DNA from: Eledone cirrhosa
Taxonomy: Eukaryota
Direction: 5' to 3'
Assembly: GCA_964016885.1 (NCBI GenBank)
Contig: OZ024741.1
Location: forward strand, 353,152,001 to 353,216,000
Length of the DNA: 64,000 nt
Shown: in pieces, positions 5,726 to 51,360 of the stretch
Position numbering within the stretch: the first letter of the stretch is position 1
Layout: every line of letters begins with the position of its first letter
Translations under genes and position numbers: made by a program
The notes under the pieces: model-generated
Databases searched by the model: none
Seen by the model: only the letters and a program-made list of their open reading frames with translations
What the model was told of the DNA's origin: nothing

Positions 5726-6139
5726 TTAATGTTGGAAGCTTTGAAGTCGATGGGACTGTGAAAGGAAAAAAAAAATGGCGGAAGTGGAAGAAAAATGCGA
5801 AGCAGAGGAAAAAATGCAAATAATTGTTTCTACTTTTGGTACAAGGCCAACAATTACCCAGTACATTACTGGTACTTTATTTTATCGACCCCGTAAGGAT
5901 GAAAGGCAAAATGACAGTTGGTGATAATGATGGCGATGTTGACTGCGATTATATGGATAATGATAGCCATGATGATGATGATGATGATTATGATAATTAG
6001 AGGAGGATGAATGGGGAATGTGGAGGTAGAGGAGAATGAAGAGGTTGTGGCGGAGGATGACAAGAATATTTAACTACGTTACGTTTCCACTCTATATACT
6101 TCCAGATTTTCAGACGTTCTCCAGTCTCGTGACTACAAA

Positions 6140-6770: not shown

Positions 6771-6984
6771 TTTCTTATATAGGCACAAGGCTAGCAATTT
6801 TGGGGGAGAGGAAAGTCGATTAAATAACCCCAGTGCGTGACTGGTACTTTATTTTATCAACCCTGTAAGGATGAAAGGCAAAGTTAAAATCGGTGGGATT
6901 TGAACTCAGATCATAATGGGCCATAACTCTATGCTGCAAAGCATGGCATCAGACCCTCTACCGATACTGCCAATCCACCGCCCT
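6771..6984 (-). mobile_element. tRNA-derived SINE (MetaSINE-like core) nested in an older copy of the same family
   Basis: Minus strand has A box TGGCAGTATCGG, B box GAGTTCAAATCC and core TTTGCCTTTCATCCTTAC.GGGTTGATAAAATAAAGTACCAG; flanked by direct repeat CGACCCCAGAATAATGA at 6754-6770 and 6988-7004. Confidence 0.8.
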
Positions 6985-7862
6985 TATCGACCCCAGAATA
7001 ATGAAAGGCAAAATTGACTTCGACGAGATTTGAAATCAGAAAGTAAAGAACTGCAACAAATATTGCTAAGTATTTGTTCCACACATAGTTATAAGACGCC
7101 TAATTTGGGAGGAAGATAAGTTTATCGCTTGATCCCCCAAATTTGATAGAGCAGGTATCAGATATGAAAAACAAAAATAATTAATAAGTACTTATGTCGA
7201 TGCGATCGACTAAATCAAAGCGGTACCCCAGCATGACCGCAGTTTAATGCCTGAAAACAGTAAAACAATAAAAGAATGTGTAAATCTATTTGTTTCATCG
7301 ATTTATGTTTGTTGTCGCGACTACAAGTTTTTCAATACTTTGATTCTTTTCCATAATTTACTTATGGAATTTATATATTTTATAATAATCTTATATGAAG
7401 TATGGTGCTGAGGAAAGAAAAAGGGTAGAATGAAATCGTATACTTTGTACGAAAGCTATAAGCATTCAATATATATGTGAACAATGGTGGATGCTTGGAC
7501 AATGTTAGAGAACGTTCTCCGCTGTGCAGAATCCCAGGCGCAAGACCTCTCATGCACACCTACCAACCTCTAACAACCCAAACGGGGAGTATCATGAAAA
7601 AAACAGGGAGGAATGAGGCAAAATGGGGAGATTTTACATAATGAAAGCTATACCCATTTTCACAAGAGAAGGGGCATCGCTCAACCATCCCAAAGTGGAT
7701 GGGAATTCTTCCCGTTGGACGGGGAGAGTTGACAAGTCTGCTCATGGTCTTAGAGGATATTGCTCAACTCGACACTATGGTTGACGTCACATTTCAATTT
7801 ACCACATAGCAGAATCGAAACAACAATCAAGTGCTTGTGAAGTAAATTGTTTAATTCCATAG

Positions 7863-9318: not shown

Positions 9319-9361
9319 ACGATGTACTAGTTTCAAGCTTATTAGCTATCGTCAGCATCGT
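9319..9361 (-). ncRNA. Type I minimal hammerhead ribozyme
   Basis: ACGAUG-CUGACGA-U.AGCU.AAUA.AGCU.U-GAAA-CUAG-UA-CAUCGU; 6-bp stem I, palindromic ACUAGU stem III. Confidence 0.8.
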
Positions 9362-13129: not shown

Positions 13130-13492
13130 TAATAAAAACAATGAATAAAAACAAAGAAACAGTTCCTTATATTAAAAAATTAATCATTTTACGATCGTTT
13201 CTAGGATATATATGTGTGTATTGGTATGTATATCATGTAGATCTATGTAAAAATTTTGCAAACTATCAGAGGGAATATACATACCTACACATATATATGC
13301 TGTCTTCATTATTTCTGAAGACAGCATATATATGTGTAGGTATGTATATTTCCTCTGATAGTTTGTAAATATTTACATAGATCTATATGATATACATACC
13401 AACACACACATATATATCCTAGAAACGATCGTAAAATGATGAATTTTTAATATAAGGAACTGTTTCTTTGTTTTTATTTATTGTTTTTATTA
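13130..13492. mobile_element. About 360-bp palindromic element (family H) in (TA)n
   Basis: Two roughly 180-nt inverted arms meet at about 13308-13311; the right arm continues into unpaired sequence. Confidence 0.8.
13305..13443 (+). ncRNA. Hammerhead ribozyme with 100-nt expanded stem II
   Basis: UUCAUUAUUU-CUGAAGA-[100 nt foldback]-GAAA-CGAUCG-UA-AAAUGAUGAA; 10-bp stem I with one G.U. Confidence 0.7.
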
Positions 13493-13671
13493 ATTTATCT
13501 TGACTCTGTTTTCCTGTGATTTACATCGAAAACATTTTTGAATACATCTTCTCTTTTCATGATATTTGGATGACATTGAGTTGTTCATACGGATTGGACA
13601 CTACCGTATATTTTGGTAGATTTATCTACATGCTATATTGATATATAAATTGATATTAATATTATTGGGCA

Positions 13672-13777
13672 CCTACTGAAGAATTATAAGAGCCCACTTG
13701 AATAAGTATCTACATACATTGGTATAATTTCACTCAACTTGTTGAAATCTTATAATGAAACGAGACGTCCGTCTGGG
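13672..13777 (+). ncRNA. Hammerhead ribozyme with 74-nt expanded stem II
   Basis: CCUA-CUGAAGA-AUUAUAAGA..UCUUAUAAU-GAAA-CGAGACGUCCG-UC-UGGG; perfect 9-bp base of stem II. Confidence 0.65.
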
Positions 13778-13943
13778 AAGAGATATATTTGATATATCTC
13801 ATATGAAATGATACAGCCATTTTTCCACACAATACAATTAGTTAGCACCCCGAACGTTTAATTAGGAATATACTCAGGTATTTCCTAATGTTTGCTGAGT
13901 GAGTTGGAATTTGCCCGGAGTATCGCTATTAGCTTTCTCCGAT

Positions 13944-13974
<31 letters not shown>

Positions 13975-18650: not shown

Positions 18651-18664
18651 TAACAATTTATAAT

Positions 18665-18851
18665 AATTGTTTCTACTATTGGCACAAGGCCAGCCATAAC
18701 CCAGTACATTACTGGTACTTTATTTTATCGACCCCGTAAGGATGAAAGGCAAAGTTAACCTCGGCGGGATTTGAACTCAGAATGGCAACGGCCGTAACTC
18801 TATGCGTCAAAGAATGGCGTCCGACCCACTACCGATACTGCCAAGTCACCT
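18665..18851 (-). mobile_element. tRNA-derived MetaSINE-like copy
   Basis: Same core and B box as 6771-6984; further copies at about 5820-5915, 10780-10910, 11320-11420, 17598-17743, 22350-22470, 28877-28997(+), 36340-36445(+) and 58958-59112. Confidence 0.8.
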
Positions 18852-21941: not shown

Positions 21942-21942
21942 T

Positions 21943-22139
21943 CTGAAGACGGCATATATATGTGTTGGTATGTATATTAAATTTGATAGTTTGTATAATT
22001 TTGTATAATTTTGTACATAGATCTGTTGAATATGCATGCCAATTCTAACACATATATGTCCTAGAAACGATCGTTAAATAATGAACTTTTTTTGTTTAAT
22101 ATAAGGAACTGTTTCATTGTTTTATTCATTATTTTTTAA

Positions 22140-22145
<6 letters not shown>
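21943..22145 (+). mobile_element. Family H 3' end starting at the hammerhead core (114-nt stem II)
   Basis: CUGAAGA..GAAA-CGAUCG-UU-AAAU; downstream AATATAAGGAACTGTTTC shared with 13448-13470; inserted in (TA)n. Confidence 0.7.
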
Positions 22146-22190
<45 letters not shown>

Positions 22191-28788: not shown

Positions 28789-29249
28789 CAGTAACCATTA
28801 TTTAAATATTTTATCATTTATTTTCCATGTTTCACTATCTATTCAAGACATATATAATACATTCATTATTTCTTATTTCTGAGTTCAAATCCCGCCGAGG
28901 TTGACTTTGCCTTTCATCCTTACGGGATCGATAAAATAAAGTACCAGTAATACACTGGTTAATTGCTGGCCTTGTGCCTAAAGTGGAAACAATTATTTCT
29001 TATTTCTTTAGACTGTTATATTTTGTTTATATTTGAATAAGTTTCGGATTTTATTTATTTATTTATCTATTTATTTATTTATTTATATATTTATTTATTT
29101 ATTTATCTATTTATTTATACTTTTACTGTGTATTTGTTTCTGGCTTTGTTTCTCTATCTCGGTCTCTTATTTCACTATATTATTACTTCGTGATCTTATT
29201 TAGTTTTTCTTTTTTTTTTAAATGTTTCATTTATGCGTTATATACAGTT

Positions 29250-29368
<119 letters not shown>

Positions 29369-29494
29369 ATACTTTGGGAGGGTCATGTTGCCAATAAGAA
29401 ACACACGCACCAGTTGCCTTCACTTCAATTTATTATAAATTTATAAATTTCTGGTTGGTTGGTTGGTTCCACAACCAGATAGTTGTTTATATAT

Positions 29495-29539
29495 AGTCAT
29501 AGTTCTTTCGTCACACACTCTGTGACCTCTTCAGTGACT
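29495..29539 (-). ncRNA. Type I minimal hammerhead ribozyme (family 1)
   Basis: AGUCA-CUGAAGA-G-GUCACA.GAGUG.UGUGAC-GAAA-GAAC-UA-UGACU. Confidence 0.78.
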
Positions 29540-29739
29540 GGGGATTCCCTTCTTTGTTTCTGTGCCTCTCCTTTGTTCTGTCCTACGCCATTTTGTTTCT
29601 GTGTGTGTGTTGTGTGCTCAGTCTGCGCATGCGCCACATCCAGGTGTCTGTGTGTGTTTATGTTCATTTATTTATTTGTTTATTTACATGTTACTGGTTG
29701 GTTGTTTGTTCTATGTGTGTGTGTGTTTTCATTTTGTCC

Positions 29740-31089
29740 TTAATTGTAAGTTGTGATGTTGCTGTTCCACTCGTATTTTCTATTTAATTTTGGTTGTAAT
29801 TCTTTTATGTTTATTGCCTCTGTAATTTGTCTAAACATTGCGTCTTTTCTGTGTGTAGATTCTATTTTTATTTCTATGTTCTCTAATTTACCCTTGTGTT
29901 CTATCTTAGCATGTTGGTAGAGTACAGATGATTCTTTATTATCTTGAAGGTCTCGCCAGTGTTCATTTATCCGTTCCCCTACACTACGAGCTGTCTCACC
30001 TATGTACATTATATTTTTGTCTCTACATTGTCCTTCAGTACATCTTATGCTATACACTACATTTCTAGTTTTACAGTTAATATGGGGGCTTATTTTACAG
30101 GTTATACATTTCTTATCTATACATGAGGGTCTTTGAAAAGGGTGTGTCTTGCTAATAAGTGTTTTTACGGAGGTACCTGGTCTTTCTACTATCTTAATAT
30201 TGAGTTTATGTTTATTTAGGGCCCTTCTAAATGTGTAAGCTAATTCACCTCTAGGGGTTGTATTGATGAACATTAGACTCTGGTATTTATTGCTATCATA
30301 CCATGAGTTTATTCTATTAGCCTTGCTCCTAGTTCTTTCTATTCTATTCCAAAATTTGCTCCTATACAAGGGGCAGGTCCCATTTATGTCATTATTTACC
30401 ATTTTTTCCCATTTGGTTCTGGCTCCTCTATACACTCTGATTTTATCTCTCTGATTGTAGCCAGAGAACTGCATACGGTGGATGAAGTGTTGTATGTGTC
30501 TCTCTAGTTCTTCGGGGTTGCACATGCGGGACACATTTCTCATCACCCGTACCAAATCCTCAATCAGTATGTTGATTTTGGTATGGTCCGAAATGGCCGA
30601 GTTTCGGTGGATCAGATGTTTGGAAGTCATGGGTTTGGCATAATGGGAATGGAGGATTTGTTTTTTGTTGTTAATGGTATCTAACCAGAGCTCTGTGTCT
30701 AGTACAGGTAATCGATGGTTGGGGTGTTTACTTGGGTAGTCTATAGTAACTCTAATGCTCTGGTGGATGGAGTTTGCTATTTGCTGGATGCTTTCCATTG
30801 TGTTTTTCTCTAGTTCCTGACTGTTCTCTAGTGGGGGTGTCTTAACTACGATGTTTATATCATCTACGTAGCAGGAGTACATTATCAGGGTTAAGGGGTC
30901 TTCTAATTGTTCTTTAAGTTTAAGTTTAAGTCTACTGTCCCACCATACCATGAATAAGTTAGCTATGTCGCCTGCAATACTAACACCAATGGCTGCTCCT
31001 TCCTCTTGGGCATATGTTTTTCCATTAAATTTGAACATATGTTCCTTAAGGGTTAGTTTTATGCTGGCCCCTACCGCATGTGCAATCAT
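29740..31089 (-). pseudogene. Inverted duplicate of the RT C-terminal half + GIY-YIG
   Basis: Translation nearly identical to the last ~449 aa of 31078-33681; RYVDD changed to CYVDD. Confidence 0.9.
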
Positions 31090-33681
31090 TTTCTTCAGTT
31101 CATCGTGGTTTTCGGGTGTCCGTATGGCTCTGGTCTACCCGTTCACACAGACACACAAAATAGGGTAGATAACAACAATGAGCCATTGGAAAGAGACAGG
31201 AGTAATTATGAGAGACATAGAAACAACCATGAGGCTGTTGGTGGAAATAGAAATAGAAACAACACAACTAACAATAACAATAGCACTAGTACACATAAAG
31301 CAGCAGCCTGGACCTCTACGTTTTATAATCCCTCCGATAAATCATTCGACCTGCGACGAGTCCACGCCACGACTTTACCATTTAACAAACGCACGCAATT
31401 GCCGTCGCAGGTCGATGAACAAACTGAAGCACAATTTAGTATAGCTAGATCCGAACTTAGAAATATTATAGAACAGTATAGCAAGAAACATAATAGAATG
31501 GAGGCCCAGCAACTGGGAGAAAAATCTGCAAATGGCTTGCGTAAGCTCATGCAGCGCTCACGTAATGGAGAGATAGCATGCTTTCCAACAGACAAGTCTG
31601 GCAGAATGTCGGTTGACAGCCTGCCAAATTACATCCAGGCAATGCAACCCCACATCACTAACACAAGAGAGGTAACACCACATGAGGATAGAGAAAAAGC
31701 CCTCAATGCCGATATGGTGATGTGGACGAATATAATGCACCCCAACAAAAGGACTGCCAACAACTTCCAGGCCTGGAACAATGACGTGCCGGCGTTGTAT
31801 GGGCTTCGAAAAGAAACGGGCTGTGACCCTGTCGCGGGACCACCAACACGGCCAGTCTGTGGGGCTAACATTGCTAGTAACTACAGACTGTCCTACTTCC
31901 TCTCCCTGATCATACACCCCATCATTGAAATGTCCCCAGATGTATGTGACAGCACGGAGGACCTCCGCAGCAGAATCGGCGTGAGTAACCGATCTGGGGA
32001 CCTAACAAACTGCATAATAGGCAGTATGGATGTTGTGTCCCTGTATCCATCTATTGACGTGGATTTTGCTATGGAGAAATGCGTAGAAATGATCAGTGAG
32101 AGCAAGGTTGAGTTCCGTGGGATTGATACCAGTGAGCTGGGACTCCTACTTAAGCTCACCTATAGTAATAGTTACCTAGACACATATGACCTTAGCAACC
32201 TGTGCCCTACAAGACCAGCAAGAGGCAGACCACCTACCATTACCTCAATGGCCAAGAAAACCCACACAGATAGATGGAACGGGTGGACCAGAGCCATACG
32301 GACACCCGAAAACCACGATCAACTGAAGAAAATAATTGCACATGCGGTAGGGGCCAGCATAAAACTAACCCTTAAGGAACATATGTTCAAATTTAATGGA
32401 AAAACATATGCCCAAGAGGAAGGAGCAGCCATTGGTGTTAGCATTGCAGGCGACATAGCTAACTTATTCATGGTATGGTGGGACAGTAGACTTAAACTTA
32501 AACTTAAAGAACAATTAGAAGACCCCTTAACCCTGATAATGTACTCCCGCTACGTAGATGATATAAACATCGTAGTTAAGACACCCCCACTAGAGAACAG
32601 TCAGGAACTAGAGAAAAACACAATGGAAAGCATCCAGCAAATAGCAAACTCCATCCACCAGAGCATTAGAGTTACTATAGACTACCCAAGTAAACACCCC
32701 AACCATCGATTACCTGTACTAGACACAGAGCTCTGGTTAGATACCATTAACAACAAAAAACAAATCCTCCATTCCCATTATGCCAAACCCATGACTTCCA
32801 AACATCTGATCCACCGAAACTCGGCCATTTCGGACCATACCAAAATCAACATACTGATTGAGGATTTGGTACGGGTGATGAGAAATGTGTCCCGCATGTG
32901 CAACCCCGAAGAACTAGAGAGACACATACAACACTTCATCCACCGTATGCAGTTCTCTGGCTACAATCAGAGAGATAAAATCAGAGTGTATAGAGGAGCC
33001 AGAACCAAATGGGAAAAAATGGTAAATAATGACATAAATGGGACCTGCCCCTTGTATAGGAGCAAATTTTGGAATAGAATAGAAAGAACTAGGAGCAAGG
33101 CTAATAGAATAAACTCATGGTATGATAGCAATAAATACCAGAGTCTAATGTTCATCAATACAACCCCTAGAGGTGAATTAGCTTACACATTTAGAAGGGC
33201 CCTAAATAAACATAAACTCAATATTAAGATAGTAGAAAGACCAGGTACCTCCGTAAAAACACTTATTAGCAAGACACACCCTTTTCAAAGACCCTCATGT
33301 ATAGATAAGAAATGTATAACCTGTAAAATAAGCCCCCATATTAACTGTAAAACTAGAAATGTAGTGTATAGCATAAGATGTACTGAAGGACAATGTAGAG
33401 ACAAAAATATAATGTACATAGGTGAGACAGCTCGTAGTGTAGGGGAACGGATAAATGAACACTGGCGAGACCTTCAAGATAATAAAGAATCATCTGTACT
33501 CTACCAACATGCTAAGATAGAACACAAGGGTAAATTAGAGAACATAGAAATAAAAATAGAATCTACACACAGAAAAGACGCAATGTTTAGACAAATTACA
33601 GAGGCAATAAACATAAAAGAATTACAACCAAAATTAAATAGAAAATACGAGTGGAACAGCAACATCACAACTTACAATTAA
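31078..33681 (+). CDS. PLE reverse transcriptase + C-terminal GIY-YIG endonuclease (5'-truncated; first ~22 codons come from the inverted arm)
   Basis: TDKSG, RPVCGA, SMDVVSLYPSID, FKFNGKTYAQEEGAAIG, RYVDD, LPVLD; Cys linker CIDKKCITC..C; NVVY..C...C..YIGET.R..ER..EH, H..H, EA..I, LNRK. Confidence 0.92.
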   Translation: MCNHFLQFIVVFGCPYGSGLPVHTDTQNRVDNNNEPLERDRSNYERHRNNHEAVGGNRNRNNTTNNNNSTSTHKAAAWTSTFYNPSDKSFDLRRVHATTLPFNKRTQLPSQVDEQTEAQFSIARSELRNIIEQYSKKHNRMEAQQLGEKSANGLRKLMQRSRNGEIACFPTDKSGRMSVDSLPNYIQAMQPHITNTREVTPHEDREKALNADMVMWTNIMHPNKRTANNFQAWNNDVPALYGLRKETGCDPVAGPPTRPVCGANIASNYRLSYFLSLIIHPIIEMSPDVCDSTEDLRSRIGVSNRSGDLTNCIIGSMDVVSLYPSIDVDFAMEKCVEMISESKVEFRGIDTSELGLLLKLTYSNSYLDTYDLSNLCPTRPARGRPPTITSMAKKTHTDRWNGWTRAIRTPENHDQLKKIIAHAVGASIKLTLKEHMFKFNGKTYAQEEGAAIGVSIAGDIANLFMVWWDSRLKLKLKEQLEDPLTLIMYSRYVDDINIVVKTPPLENSQELEKNTMESIQQIANSIHQSIRVTIDYPSKHPNHRLPVLDTELWLDTINNKKQILHSHYAKPMTSKHLIHRNSAISDHTKINILIEDLVRVMRNVSRMCNPEELERHIQHFIHRMQFSGYNQRDKIRVYRGARTKWEKMVNNDINGTCPLYRSKFWNRIERTRSKANRINSWYDSNKYQSLMFINTTPRGELAYTFRRALNKHKLNIKIVERPGTSVKTLISKTHPFQRPSCIDKKCITCKISPHINCKTRNVVYSIRCTEGQCRDKNIMYIGETARSVGERINEHWRDLQDNKESSVLYQHAKIEHKGKLENIEIKIESTHRKDAMFRQITEAINIKELQPKLNRKYEWNSNITTYN

Positions 33682-33786
33682 GGACAAAATGAAAACACAC
33701 ACACACATAGAACAAACAACCAACCAGTAACATGTAAATAAACAAATAAATAAATGAACATAAACACACACAGACACCTGGAGGTG

Positions 33787-33835
33787 GCGCATGCGCAGAC
33801 TGAGCACACAACACACACACAGAAACAAAATGGCG
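33787..33835 (+). promoter_or_regulatory. Candidate pLTR promoter: NRF1-like GCGCATGCGCA + YY1-like AAAATGGCG
   Basis: Motifs at 33787-33797 and 33827-33835, just upstream of the hammerhead; the YY1-like motif is kept in the diverged copy at 9799-9807. Confidence 0.4.
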
Positions 33836-33881
33836 TAGGACAGAACAAAGGAGAGGCACAGAAACAAAGAAAGGAATCCCC

Positions 33882-33926
33882 AGTCACTGAAGAGGTCACA
33901 GAGTGTGTGACGAAAGAACTATGACT
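33882..33926 (+). ncRNA. Type I minimal hammerhead ribozyme (family 1 3' UTR/pLTR)
   Basis: AGUCA-CUGAAGA-G-GUCACA.GAGUG.UGUGAC-GAAA-GAAC-UA-UGACU, about 200 nt after the stop codon. Confidence 0.78.
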
Positions 33927-34136
33927 ATATATAAACAACTATCTGGTTGTGGAACCAACCAACCAACCAGAAATTTATAAATTTATAAATTTATTATAAA
34001 TTTATTATAATAAATTGAAGTGAAGGCAACTGGTGCGTGTGTTTCTTATTGGCAACATGACCCTCCCAAAGTATAACAATATCGGTTTCAACACACGATT
34101 TCAGATAAAGAATCTTGCTAAACAAATTCAGAAACG

Positions 34137-37574: not shown

Positions 37575-38370
37575 AACCACTAAAAAAGCCTGGCATGGAG
37601 TTCCGACAAGTTTATGACATCACACCTTGAGGGATATCTCTATGCAATACAGGAACAAGAACTCCCTACCAAATATCTGCTGCACAAAAGAGGAGGGCCA
37701 TCTGCTGACAATAAATGTAGGCTATGTAAAACAAAGATCGAGGATGTAAGCTACATTGTTGCCAGCTGCGAAAGAATGTCATCTCCCTACTACCTCCCCA
37801 TGAGACACGATGGGATAGCTAGAACCATCTGGGACGCACTTCGGAAAACAAAATTAACAACAAACGAGGAAGAATATATTGAGACAGATGGCACTAAGGA
37901 ATACTGGTGGAACCTGAAAATAAAAACTGCCACCAAATTAAAGCACAACCGGCCTGATATTGTAGTTTGGGACCACACATTGAAAACGTGTTCTGTTGTG
38001 GAGATCAGCTGCCCACTTGATGTAAACGTTGTCAGAAAAATACAGGAGAAGGAGGACATCTACGGACCATTGATGAGGAGTTTACAAATCCAGTATCCAA
38101 GATACACCTTTAACTTCATACCCATCATTATTGGAGCTACGAGTTATATACCAACCCACTTGGACCAAAGTATGACTGAACTTGGATTTACGGACAAAAA
38201 GCGCAGCTCCCTAATTCATAGTCTACAAATGGTTGCGATAGCTGGCACCTTCAAAATTTGCAAAACATTCTTGCGATTCAAGGGATGACAATTTCTTTTC
38301 TTTTACAACCTTGCCATCAGGAAGGTGGCCAGTCAAAAAAATATACTCGAAATTAAGAGAAAGCGATAAC
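37575..38370 (+). mobile_element. 5'-truncated R4/Dong-type non-LTR element (CCHC-like knuckle + restriction-like endonuclease) in (CATA)n
   Basis: ORF 37614-38288: AIQEQ, CRLC..E...IVASC, RHD, NRPDIVV, VEISCP, K..K...Y; the 3' UTR runs into CATACATA. Confidence 0.88.
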
Positions 38371-38805
38371 ATACATGCATACATACATACATACATACAC
38401 ATACTTACATACATAGCATGTGTGTTTATATATATGTATGTCAGTGCGTGTGCGTGTGTGTGTGTGTACATGTATGTGTATGCGTGTATGAAAGTGAAGA
38501 ATTATCGAAGTATGTTGATTTTAAAACTTTTTCGAATGGTTGTTTTCACTGTAATGAAATGCCACTTGGCTATTTCTATAGCAACTAGCTAAGTGGAATG
38601 GAGCAACGTGAAATAAATTGTCTAGATCAAAGACACAACGCACCCGTCAGCCTCGCCAGCCTATGAATCGAACTCAAGATCTTATGGTAGTGACCCCAGT
38701 ATTCTAGCTTTTAAGTCACACGCCATCACTAGCACACACACACACAAACTTATTTATATATATATATACAGAGGTATCCACAGTAAGTTGTGGGGTCTAT
38801 TCTAT

Positions 38806-39009
38806 ATGAAGAACTCGATGTAATCCATATGTTGAAAATGTTGTAGGTTAAGATAAATCTCGGAAAACAATCTTTATCTGATAGTTTGTAACTAACCTTA
38901 CATAGATCAATAACTGAGTATAGCTACAATGTATTATCATCATCTAGAAACGATCGTAAAGCAGTGAAGTATATCTCTAATGACTTGATTTTTTATTTCA
39001 TTGTTTTAA

Positions 39010-39010
<1 letters not shown>
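38806..39010 (+). mobile_element. Diverged family H-like 3' end with degenerate long-stem-II hammerhead
   Basis: Shares TCTGATAGTTTGTAA..TTACATAGATC and CTAGAAACGATCGTAAA with 13305-13443; core reads AUGAAGA. Confidence 0.5.
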
Positions 39011-39077
<67 letters not shown>

Positions 39078-43244: not shown

Positions 43245-43363
43245 GTTTACAGTTATATTAAGCCGAGAACATTGGTGTTCGCCTGCTCACCAAAGATAAG
43301 CAGCGTCCAGCCTAGTTAGTACTGCGACGGGAGAGCACTTGGAAAGCCTATGTGCTGTTAGCT
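43245..43363 (+). pseudogene. 5S rRNA-derived copy (pseudogene or SINE3 head)
   Basis: 119 nt aligning to 5S: TCACCAAAGATAAGCAGCG, GTTAGTACT..GA.GGGAGA, TTGGAAA, GTGCTGTTAGCT; many substitutions. Confidence 0.8.
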
Positions 43364-48652: not shown

Positions 48653-48943
48653 AAAAGATATTGATAGATATATAAGAGAAATGGATCTCTGCCAGTTTTG
48701 ACGATGAGTATTCCAGAAGTTCGATAAATTGAACTGCCTACTCATTGTAGTATCGATCACATGCACATAGACAGCGACAGCATGGCACAATGTTTGACAA
48801 CTCTGATCATTTGAATAACAATCACAATTATTTCACCTTCAAGTCTTGATTCAACATGAAGCTCTGATAATAGAGATCGCTTGAAATTGAACTCAGAATT
48901 TCATGATTGGAAAGTAAATTTCTTAACGCCTCAAATATGACCA

Positions 48944-48990
<47 letters not shown>

Positions 48991-48997
48991 ATATCTA

Positions 48998-51360
48998 CGT
49001 GCTGAGCCAATGCGGCAAACGCAAATCCCCGGGTCTCGATGGTCTTCCATACGAACTATATCTAGCTATGCCGGACTTGTTCCCCGATCTCCTCGAGGCG
49101 GTCTACTGCAACTGGCAACAGAACGGGAGAATTCCCTGTGCTGTGACCAAGGGCGTAGTCACGCTAGTGAGGAAGGACGAGAACAAGGGTTACGATATAA
49201 ATAATTTCAGGCCCATAACTCTGCTAAATACAGAGTTACAGATTTTGGCCAAGGTGCTAGCAAAGAGGTTGGCGCTTGTCGTGGGAAACCTGGTGGGAGA
49301 TGCGCAGACATGTGCTATCCCGTCCAGGTCCATCCACGATAACCTCCACCTCATGCGATACATCATAGAGAGGGTTGGGAACGAACCCGGCTTTGGTGGG
49401 GCCCTGATCAACTTGGATCAATCTAAGGCATTCGATAGGGTCGACAATGGTTACCTGGATGCGGTGCTAGCGGCGGCAGGCTTCGGACCCGTTTTCAGCG
49501 GCTGGATCAATGCCATGCACAGCAGCCGCATCTGCTCTAGGGTCAAGGTGAACGGCTACCTCTCGGAGCCGTTCGAAATCGCGCGGTCCATCCGACAGGG
49601 GTGCCCTCTCTCCTCCCTTCTGTATGTAATGATTCTAGAGCCACTGCTGCGGAAGTTGGAGTTGTTGCAGGGCATCCCGTTGGAACCGGGATTGCGGAAA
49701 GCGGTGTCAGCCGACGCCGATGACGTAACAGTAATGGTGTCGACGGCCTCGGGAATCGGGGCGATCGGCACCTTACTGGAGGAGTACGAAAGGTTTACAG
49801 GGGCTAAGCTGAACCGGGACAAGTCGATCGGTCTGCAACTCGGCACGTGGAGGGGCAGATCGATGCCCTCCGATGGCGTCGTCGGGCGCTGGACGAAGAG
49901 CCCGGTGAAGTTGCTCGGGGTCTGGTTCGGACCAGACCTCCAGGTGGAGAAGAACTGGGGTGAGGTGACGAACAGGGTGTTTGCACTGACCCAGAAGTGG
50001 GCCGAGTGCAAACCGTCCCTGAAAGGTCGGGCGGAGGTGGCGAACACTTATATAGCGTCCGTCATCTACTACCGCCTGACCGTTGTGCCTTGCCCAAGGG
50101 AAACGCTCGCCAAAATGGAGCGCGCACTCTTCCAATTCCTTTGGAAGAAGCGGGCTCCTATGGTGAGGAGATCCATCTGCTGTCAACACCCTTCGAAAGG
50201 AGGGCTGGGGATGCCGTAGCTAATGATACGTAAACACGCATTAAGGCTACGGCACCTTCAGGTATTCCTCTCCGGTCAACCGGTGTGGGCCCCGTTTGTG
50301 AGGCGAGCCTTTACCAGACTCATCTCACTCACCGAGCTGCAATCCTGGGTCAAGCAAAGACCGAGAAAACTGGGCGCCTGGCACACCGAGTGTGCCCAGG
50401 CGCTCACGGCTCTCTGGCAGGCGGACCCGGCTGTCACTGGAGAATCCACCTCGTCATTCTATAGAGGGCTGGTGGTTAGCAGGTGCGACGACGCCCTCGG
50501 AGAAGCCCTAGGCATGGAGGAAGACGAACTGGCCAACCTGTTCGGTAGGACATTCAGCCCGGGACCCATGGATAACTTCCAGAGGTCCTGGCCTGGCAAT
50601 GCTACAGAAGGGCTCTGCCCGTTCGAGAAAGGCTCTACAGACACGGGCGCCCGGGTAGGGACCCATCGAAAAAGATCTGTCCCAGATGCGTGTGCGACGA
50701 GGAAACCGTTTCACACGCATTGGTACACTGCTCGGGAATTGCCGATCTGTGGGGCTATGTCGAACAACTGCTGTCAAGGGTGGGACCGATCCGGTTGACC
50801 ACCGAGTCTATTGTAACGATCAAGCCGCCTCCCCTCTTCAAAAACGAAGGAGAGGCGGTGTTTCTGTGCGTAATAGCCATGGCGAAAGAGGTTGTATGGT
50901 GGACGCGTCTGAAAGGACTGAGGTCAGACACCTTTCTCTCTGGCCAACAACTGGTCCGTTTCTTCCGATATCATTTCGGAAGAAGGATCAGGATGGAGAG
51001 AGAGGTGCTGCACCCCAGCCGTTTCTATGAAAGATGGGTGAAAGTGGCGAGAATGGCCCGTGTGAATGGGCCTTCACTCTACATCAGACTATAGGTGAGG
51101 AAGATGAAAGACCAAGGGAGCACCCCTTCTCTGTGCTCCTGAGGAGAAGGGTTGCACACTTTTTTCGGGGGTGTGTGCGACCCCCCAAGGCGCCTGCCTC
51201 CTCTCTATTGAGGACTTTGTTATAAATTTAATTTTGTTATATTTTATTTTATTTTTATATATTGTTATTGCCTCCTCCTTATTGAGGACGCCTTGTTTTG
51301 TAAACTCCCCCCATTGTAGTTGTCCCACTTTTGATGCCCTGGAGGCAAATAAAAGAAACA
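48998..51360 (+). mobile_element. 5'-truncated Tx1/L1-clade LINE (RT + zinc knuckle), disabled, in (TATC)n
   Basis: KSPGLDG, FRPITLLN, LDQSKAFDRV, RQGCPLS, ADADD, GGLG then stop at 50217-50219; frameshifted CPRC..EETVSHALVHC; AATAAA at the 3' end; TATC repeats on both sides. Confidence 0.9.

Follow-up and report, generated by a model that had tools for sequence, protein, structure and literature searches.

A Penelope-like element (PLE) of Eledone cirrhosa carries a hammerhead motif whose stem II is about 100 nt long, where about 12-25 nt is usual, and ends in a strongly conserved apical motif. Comparison of genomic copies, which we grouped as families H1, H3, H5, H7, H2 and H6 (the H families), indicates that the hammerhead is very probably under selection, and the motif is likely to be a working ribozyme. 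Both the ribozyme class and the host element are known; the 100-nt arm with its conserved tip appears to be undescribed in the literature that was searched. The H families bear on the role of hammerheads in PLEs: they supply compensatory variants that arose naturally, a young family whose ORFs are intact, and a separately mutable tip, so that binding, cleavage and template choice are separable. Coordinates refer to the window, the whole stretch of 64,000 nucleotides of contig OZ024741.1 (assembly GCA_964016885.1) that was analysed.

The hammerhead motif and its setting

The whole motif lies at 13305-13443 on the forward strand. Stem I is formed by a 5′ strand at 13305-13314, which contains TCATT, and a 3′ strand at 13434-13443, giving ten pairs of which one is U-G; the tenth is supplied by an inversion junction, and intact family copies have nine. 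The 5′ strand is followed by the core CUGAAGA (13315-13321; UUGAAAA or UUGACAA in H2 and H6), by the 100-nt stem II insert (13322-13421), predicted to be an irregular hairpin and covarying at its base across families, and by GAAA (13422-13425), the start of a block at 13422-13433 that goes on with the palindromic stem III ACGAUCGU and the predicted cleavage triplet GUA (13431-13433). The cut is predicted to fall after 13433. The original prediction had named the 10-bp stem I, CUGAAGA, a 100-nt foldback, GAAA, the palindrome and GUA, and all are present; its identification of a PLE hammerhead is likewise borne out. The folding z-score of the motif is -4.49 (0 of 200 shuffles were equally stable), and the hammerhead-constrained fold lies 1.7 kcal/mol above the minimum.

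The apical motif, TGATA(G/A/T)TTTGTA followed by a variable loop and a second half, spans 13356-13383 on the same strand, its halves being TGATAGTTTGTA (13356-13367) and TACATAGATC (13374-13383). Stem II also holds, at C3+25, a splice-donor-like GTATGT (13340-13345, forward strand) that is predicted to be paired; here and below the labels initiator, donor, branch point and polyadenylation follow the general consensus motifs. The forward-strand tail (13444-13631) forms the start of the element's 5′ UTR and includes a conserved block (13474-13487) that is a predicted partner of the stem I 3′ strand, in competition with the ribozyme fold.

The region 13130-13492 is a head-to-head pair of PLE terminal repeats, in which 13130-13308 is the reverse complement of 13316-13492 and the arms are 93-98% complementary; such inverted pLTR pairs are already known (PMC3846280). 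The inverted arm (13130-13308, reverse strand) is without C3 and the stem I 5′ strand and has a short tail that ends in a TA run, and the whole hammerhead is found in the right arm only. RNA spanning the whole pair is predicted to collapse into one long duplex of -255 kcal/mol, and the window copy could therefore be a ribozyme only if its transcript started at the junction.

Two further copies in the window had been proposed as relatives. The one at 21943 belongs to H3 (21942-22148, forward strand) and has the 114-nt insert ascribed to it; it is not a whole hammerhead, since a TA run truncates it on the 5′ side 1 nt upstream of the core, so that stem I cannot form in cis, and its triplet is GUU. 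The supposed 134-nt relative at 38806 proved to be a chimera, in which an inverted tail piece of H2 (38775-38871, reverse strand), the source of the false 'core', is joined to a coreless H2 fragment (38871-39012, forward strand) running from mid stem II through the apex, GAAA and GUA into a short tail. Intact copies of H2 have the core UUGAAAA and a 107-nt insert. Directly at the H1 tail end lies a copy of another family, H4 (13655-13950, with a 21-nt deletion), whose hammerhead at 13670-13777 (forward strand) has a 74-nt stem II without the H apical motif; stem II measures 95 nt in other H4 copies and is predicted to be three-way. A first look gave 2,868 H4 candidates.

The host element

The host genome is 3.0 Gb in size and microsatellite-rich, and a pattern combining the apex with stem III and core had 9,424 exact matches in it versus 0 in a reversed control. 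In 30 genomic matches the motif is found about 720-770 nt past a GIY-YIG endonuclease (EN) frame. At locus L058 two hammerheads stand 3.7 kb apart with a reverse transcriptase (RT)-EN frame between them, and at L342 an intact 813-aa ORF lies within 6.7-kb tandem units. This single ORF encodes the RT followed by a C-terminal GIY-YIG domain. The H1 EN gave a weak match to the Pfam GIY-YIG family (E 0.035) and the whole ORF had no Pfam match; the translations show RW[K/R] (RWK in H1, RWR in H3), DKT, a CxCX5C linker and CxxC/CxH around E and N, and an internal CCHH is not present in them. The 3′ ends of the element enter TA runs at two positions.

By the published description, the host is a PLE with Hydra-clade protein motifs, an assignment made by motif match to section 11 of that description (Craig et al. 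2021, PMC8557442), our tree holding local EN rows only. The likeness extends to the C-terminal GIY-YIG domain and each of the motifs just listed, to TA-run targets, to the type I pLTR hammerhead and to the unpaired bases that often flank stem II. Hydra-clade PLEs are generally shorter than 3 kb, in contrast to units of 3.7-6.7 kb here. Neptune elements, with a CX2-5CxxC finger and CCHH, and Naiad elements, with an N-terminal EN, were dropped on motif grounds. A non-LTR retrozyme, made of short non-coding monomers in tandem that each have a hammerhead, was ruled out by the tandem units of 3.7-6.7 kb with an ORF, the short copies being solo or inverted.

Family H3 (L342; G000:C1:183737131-183757198) forms the 6.7-kb tandem arrays and has a microsatellite-rich 3′ UTR of about 4 kb. 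Its top matches and many of its copies are 99-100% identical, and the family is therefore very young. Other families of the same clade (L127-L156) have intact ORFs of 713-719 aa and hammerhead inserts of 26 or 38 nt. A TTGAGC(A/T)CT-like motif recurs two to three times between hammerhead and start codon (L058, L082, L195, L288, L127, L264, L267 and L269) and is also present in distant metagenome relatives; it is a candidate RT start-site signal.

Selection on the ribozyme fold

The ENs of the H families other than H3 form one clade (99/98) in a tree of 20 local rows. EN identity falls from about 71% between H1 and H7 to 57-60% between H1 and H2/H6, and the upstream 3′ UTR is unalignable between the far family groups. 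Stem I is retained across this distance: in 20 rows, four of nine pairs have changed on both sides, and its cells are paired in about 93-96% of cases (92.8 and 96.2) as against 29-44% in slid controls, percentages that are not to be read as a probability because the rows are related by descent. Stem II pairs were counted outward from the core without an alignment. Among 13 representatives, pairs 2-3 and 5-12 form, and positions 2, 5, 6, 9, 10, 11 and 12 switch among A-U, G-C and U-A; some H7 copies fall out of register in their poly-C arm.

The core reads CUGAAGA in eight of the 13 representatives and UUGA[A/C]AA in five, and GAAA is present in all of them. H2 and H6 have U3-A8 in place of C3-G8, a swap reported for PLE hammerheads of Schistosoma (PMC4209133). 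Throughout the 20 rows A15.1-U16.1 is A-U, the triplet is GUA (GUU in H3) and the stem III palindrome is invariant. The compensation in stem I and at the base of stem II, taken with the U3-A8 swap, argues that the ribozyme fold has been selected. Covariation, which the original prediction had proposed as a check, is thus found in both places across the families of this genome; the signal derives from about three independent lineages.

The first position of stem II is C-A in nine of the 13 representatives, U-A in three and G-A in one; published PLE hammerheads (PMC8557442 File S2) also have unpaired bases, C and A among them, on either side of stem II. In most families G10.1-C11.1 is absent directly after A9, and no partner between loop 1 and loop 2 is evident; a canonical extended hammerhead of the Schistosoma or viroid type was rejected on these two points. 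The C-A junction pair and the missing loop-loop partner predict slow cleavage. The minimal PLE hammerheads (Cervera and de la Pena 2014, PMC4209133) are alike in being type I, in the short palindromic stem III, which may suit dimer folding, in the extra base after A9 and in having the U3-A8 core variant. A U3-A8 core also occurs in a separate family (L107 and L121) with the core TTGATAA and an insert of 57-62 nt.

Conservation of the stem II tip

The tip is predicted to consist of a 3-bp helix, a 4x3 internal loop and a helix of 4-5 bp. Between three family groups its halves are 91-97% and 100% identical. Identity is 97-100% in the GAAA/stem III block and drops to 35-51% in the stem arms and to 18-41% in the loop; the apex, which had been said to be kept between relatives, is as conserved as the GAAA/stem III block. 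Twenty-two tip bases are invariant or nearly so. Many rows had been picked by the apex pattern, and for this reason an independent check was run from the start-codon region. It found 30 loci, 23 with a hammerhead and seven truncated, and the exact apex was present in all 23 hammerheads found without its use (H1b, H2, H3 and H6 types). H7 and one H5 copy first surfaced in a different search, by insert length, that likewise did not depend on the apex. A pattern for large internal deletions matched only two H1 copies.

None of the seven core tip pairs varies in any of the 20 rows, and the RNA structure of the tip is therefore a prediction to which covariation does not speak; the predicted helix probability is 0.73-1.0 in six of six families. 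In the 13 representatives the halves are separated by a spacer of 4-18 nt that lengthens the hairpin, a variability easier to reconcile with a folded strand than with fixed sites in duplex DNA. Within 215 nt of tail there is no conserved long-range partner for the tip, the best candidates being 6-9 bp at a place that differs per family. Of the original prediction that the apex is an RNA module of its own, the conservation is borne out; the invariant pairs offer no covariation in favour of such a module, promoter and splicing readings compete with it, and no conserved partner for a tertiary contact was found. We consider the tip a likely protein-binding site, and its ligand would most likely be the element's own RT-endonuclease. 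The H apical motif was not seen by eye in other long-stem families and its pattern had 0 matches in metagenome contigs; since these long-stem families are without it and metagenome relatives have inserts of 12-20 nt, the motif is not needed by the whole clade.

Stem II length and the detection of long-stem hammerheads

Stem II inserts in the H families measure about 99-116 nt. A pattern for inserts of 78-108 nt not ending in A gave 1,521 genome matches versus 15 in a control, and these include several other families with different folds and without the H apex; families with inserts of 12-62 nt are also present in the genome. A protein scan of metagenomes returned 14 loci, four of them with a credible hammerhead outside the ORF (inserts of 12, 12, 18 and 20 nt). 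Long stems are thus a local trend, and the apical motif is specific to the H clade. The original prediction that PLE stems are normally short agrees with published rows; in this genome a long stem II is not peculiar to one family.

Inserts of published Hydra hammerheads reach at most about 26 nt, and 23 nt in the sole octopus family (PMC8557442 File S2), compared to 99-116 nt with a conserved tip here, and in the minimal PLE hammerheads a 'larger than usual' helix II means 7-8 bp (PMC4209133). The longest inserts of the published table, about 50 nt or half of those in the H families, belong to plant and algal PLE-X1 elements, one of which, PLE-X1_cBra, likewise has an unpaired C and A flanking stem II (PMC8557442 File S2). 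Unlike the H families, PLE-X1 is endonuclease-less and Chlamys-related, and the relevant passages report no conserved tip (PMC8557442). A search of titles and abstract openings in the open literature showed no PLE hammerhead with a stem II of about 100 nt, and the main text of the octopus repeat paper mentions neither hammerhead nor ribozyme.

Of the 246 Rfam matches in the window 150 were listed, none of them a hammerhead, and at gathering score there were 0 hammerhead matches in ten loci. The ten loci included short-stem hammerheads, which were missed as well; Rfam does overlook the variant, as had been supposed, and stem length is not the full cause. Descriptor searches that allow only a short stem II would undercount such motifs, of which this genome alone has over 10,000 matches. 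Further short-stem hammerhead-like motifs are present in the window at 9355 (reverse strand), 9577 and 12797 (both forward) and about 34240 (reverse), with inserts of 11-15 nt where measured.

Copy ends and a proposed mechanism

We surveyed the ends of 67 distinct copies in genome order, of which 66 were assignable. In 23 of the 66 the 5′ break falls 4-12 nt before C3, and in 16 it is exactly 7 nt away; 22 copies extend at least 140 nt 5′. The commonest break of the family is at 13308, 7 nt upstream of C3, at TCATT, a site 10-20 nt past AATAAA. Among 25 copies that break at 0-12 nt, 18 are inversion arms (both arms counted), six adjoin a short interspersed repeat and one a TA run; copies that head an ORF never break at -7 (0 of 23). 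The 3′ ends form two clusters, one at 50-78 nt past the cut with about 39 of 84 and one at 189-216 nt with about 31 (overlapping loci enter twice), and family copies end near 13498 or near 13631 and then enter TA runs. Three contig sets showed only copy variation and the two tail ends. In 12 of 15 inverted pairs one arm has a short and the other a long tail.

The Anolis Poseidon element PAc (Frangieh et al. 2024, PMC11167929) is alike in having two 3′ ends past the hammerhead that define the tails and copies that span the cut; protein-assisted cleavage, priming of both strands, a pair of internal start sites and an uncut RNA template have been reported for it. In contrast to the H families, PAc is of the Poseidon clade and its hammerhead overlaps the start codon; its start sites are a few tens of nt apart within the ORF, compared to about 140 nt apart in a 5′ UTR of 400-490 nt here. 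Read together with the Anolis results, the copy ends lead us to place the RNA 5′ end at -7 and to propose that twin priming meets there, and that full-length tandems stem from a template that was read through or circular.

The explanation that we favour, with somewhat better than even confidence, is a slow type I hammerhead, probably dependent on a dimer or a protein, with a stem II of about 100-115 nt and a protein-bound tip. The hammerhead would sit near the 5′ end of a transcript that starts about 7 nt upstream of the core, and self-cleavage after GUA would be slow and would probably occur in a dimer or with the aid of a protein, with the long arm presenting its internal loop to a protein, probably the element's own. 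Reverse transcription would use uncut RNA and begin in the tail at either of two sites, which lie at about +65-70 and about +200 relative to the cut; both target strands would prime, and both cDNAs would reach the RNA 5′ end, giving a head-to-head join such as 13130-13631. Full-length tandems could arise from a read-through or circularised template. Once transcribed, the block 40-50 nt past the cut may pair with stem I and switch the ribozyme off. Pairing between the block 39-52 nt past the cut and the stem I 3′ strand is possible in 15 of 15 representatives, mostly through wobble changes, and the competing helix is the predicted winner (>0.5) in nine of 15 for RNA from -7 and in six of 15 for RNA from -30, the sequence being A/U-rich. 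With an RNA start at -7, stem I is predicted to be weak in H1, H3, H5 and H7. The sharp 5′ break and the short-plus-long tails amount to a testable account of the head-to-head repeats typical of PLEs.

A bolder version, which we put forward as possible but doubtful, makes stem II a control arm: the tip would be bound by the element's own RT-endonuclease, the 5′ strand would hide the donor, and together with the competing helix the arm would decide whether the RNA is spliced so as to be translated, cut and circularised, or kept as a whole template. If true, it would be a natural hammerhead in which a module of stem II exerts allosteric control, and it would give a direct approach to the purpose of PLE ribozymes.

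Other readings of the tip

The conserved tip may be read as DNA rather than RNA. In an internal promoter, TCATT would be the initiator and the half-motifs 48-85 bp downstream would bind transcription factors, the stem having grown around them. The -7 hotspot on TCATT 10-20 nt past AATAAA, the fixed start of the apex 41-46 nt from C3 and its invariance without covariation all fit, but the spacing of the half-motifs ranges from 4 to 18 nt while staying hairpin-like, the apex sits exactly at the tip of a covarying stem, and by eye the downstream promoter consensus is unmatched at +28 to +32. We therefore hold a promoter unlikely, precedented as it is by an internal promoter in Drosophila Penelope (PMC2377424). 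The 5′ UTR of Penelope in Drosophila virilis combines that promoter and its initiator with a conserved early donor and an intron touching the hammerhead (PMC2377424); the start and the donor in the H families, by comparison, are deduced from DNA alone, and the donor-like site is inside stem II. Splicing signals would explain the tip if a hairpin-masked donor at C3+24/25 were used with the branch-like TGAT and acceptor-like TACATAG of the tip (an intron of 42-53 nt), or if the same donor served a longer 5′ UTR intron whose removal takes half the ribozyme, and the hairpin would in that event favour intron retention in the transposing RNA. All 13 representatives do have a GT-R-N-GT hexamer 42-53 nt upstream of the invariant TAG, and in the six families measured it stands at C3+24 or +25 and is predicted to be paired; ACTAAC directly precedes the AG in H2 and H6, and Penelope has a conserved donor 46 bp past its start and an intron end that meets the hammerhead (PMC2377424, PMC4209133). 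Taken jointly these splicing proposals still seem to us rather improbable: the gap from donor to branch would be no more than 19-25 nt, the invariant stretch far exceeds what splicing needs, the putative far acceptor TTGAGCTC recurs as a motif in the 5′ UTRs of the clade, and a conserved donor was not seen by eye in other long-stem families. That no genomic copy precisely lacks either intron weighs little, PLEs being known to retain introns.

We give very little credence to the view that the tip and stem III blocks are DNA sites of the GIY-YIG endonuclease, which would re-cut the pLTR at ATTATT, 7 nt upstream of the core. Exactly this site has taken up a short interspersed repeat with duplications of varied length (13 of 108 repeat ends in the surveyed loci), and the Anolis enzyme is reported to cut its own pLTR at ATT (PMC11167929); however, this repeat ends AATTAT at nearly all sites and may just have a preference for ATT, a new PLE insertion would be joined to the cut by its 3′ tail while the inverted pairs are joined by their 5′ ends, and the spacing within the tip is variable. 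Hardly credible at all is a decayed or non-cleaving hammerhead with a tip kept by chance or hitch-hiking. In its favour, all whole genomic copies span the cut site, and ribozyme mutants in Anolis were without effect on insertion in vitro (PMC11167929), but compensation in both stems and in the core pair speaks against it, as do the 22 invariant or near-invariant tip bases next to an upstream UTR that is unalignable.

The interspersed repeat ending in AATTAT is about 200 nt long and has inserted independently at the H1 stem I 5′ strand, with varied truncations and duplications and sometimes in tandem (L006, L007, L019, L021, L023-L025, L058, L109, L114, L116, L119 and L124); in the window it occupies 5818-5910, 6829-6985, 18662-18850 and 28877-29000.

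Other features of the window

A different Penelope-like element, together with an inverted 5′-truncated copy, occupies 29400-34050, with an 874-aa frame (31057-33681) that has RT and GIY-YIG motifs and with hammerheads of 18-nt insert at 33887 (forward strand) and 29534 (reverse strand). Sequence resembling 5S rRNA at 43245-43363 scores 56.5 bits, over the Rfam gathering score, and has many mismatches; it is likely a pseudogene or a 5S-derived repeat. Broken LINE-type reverse transcriptase frames are found at 48927-51094 and 37584-38288 (RVT_1, E 1.5e-21; zf-RVT).
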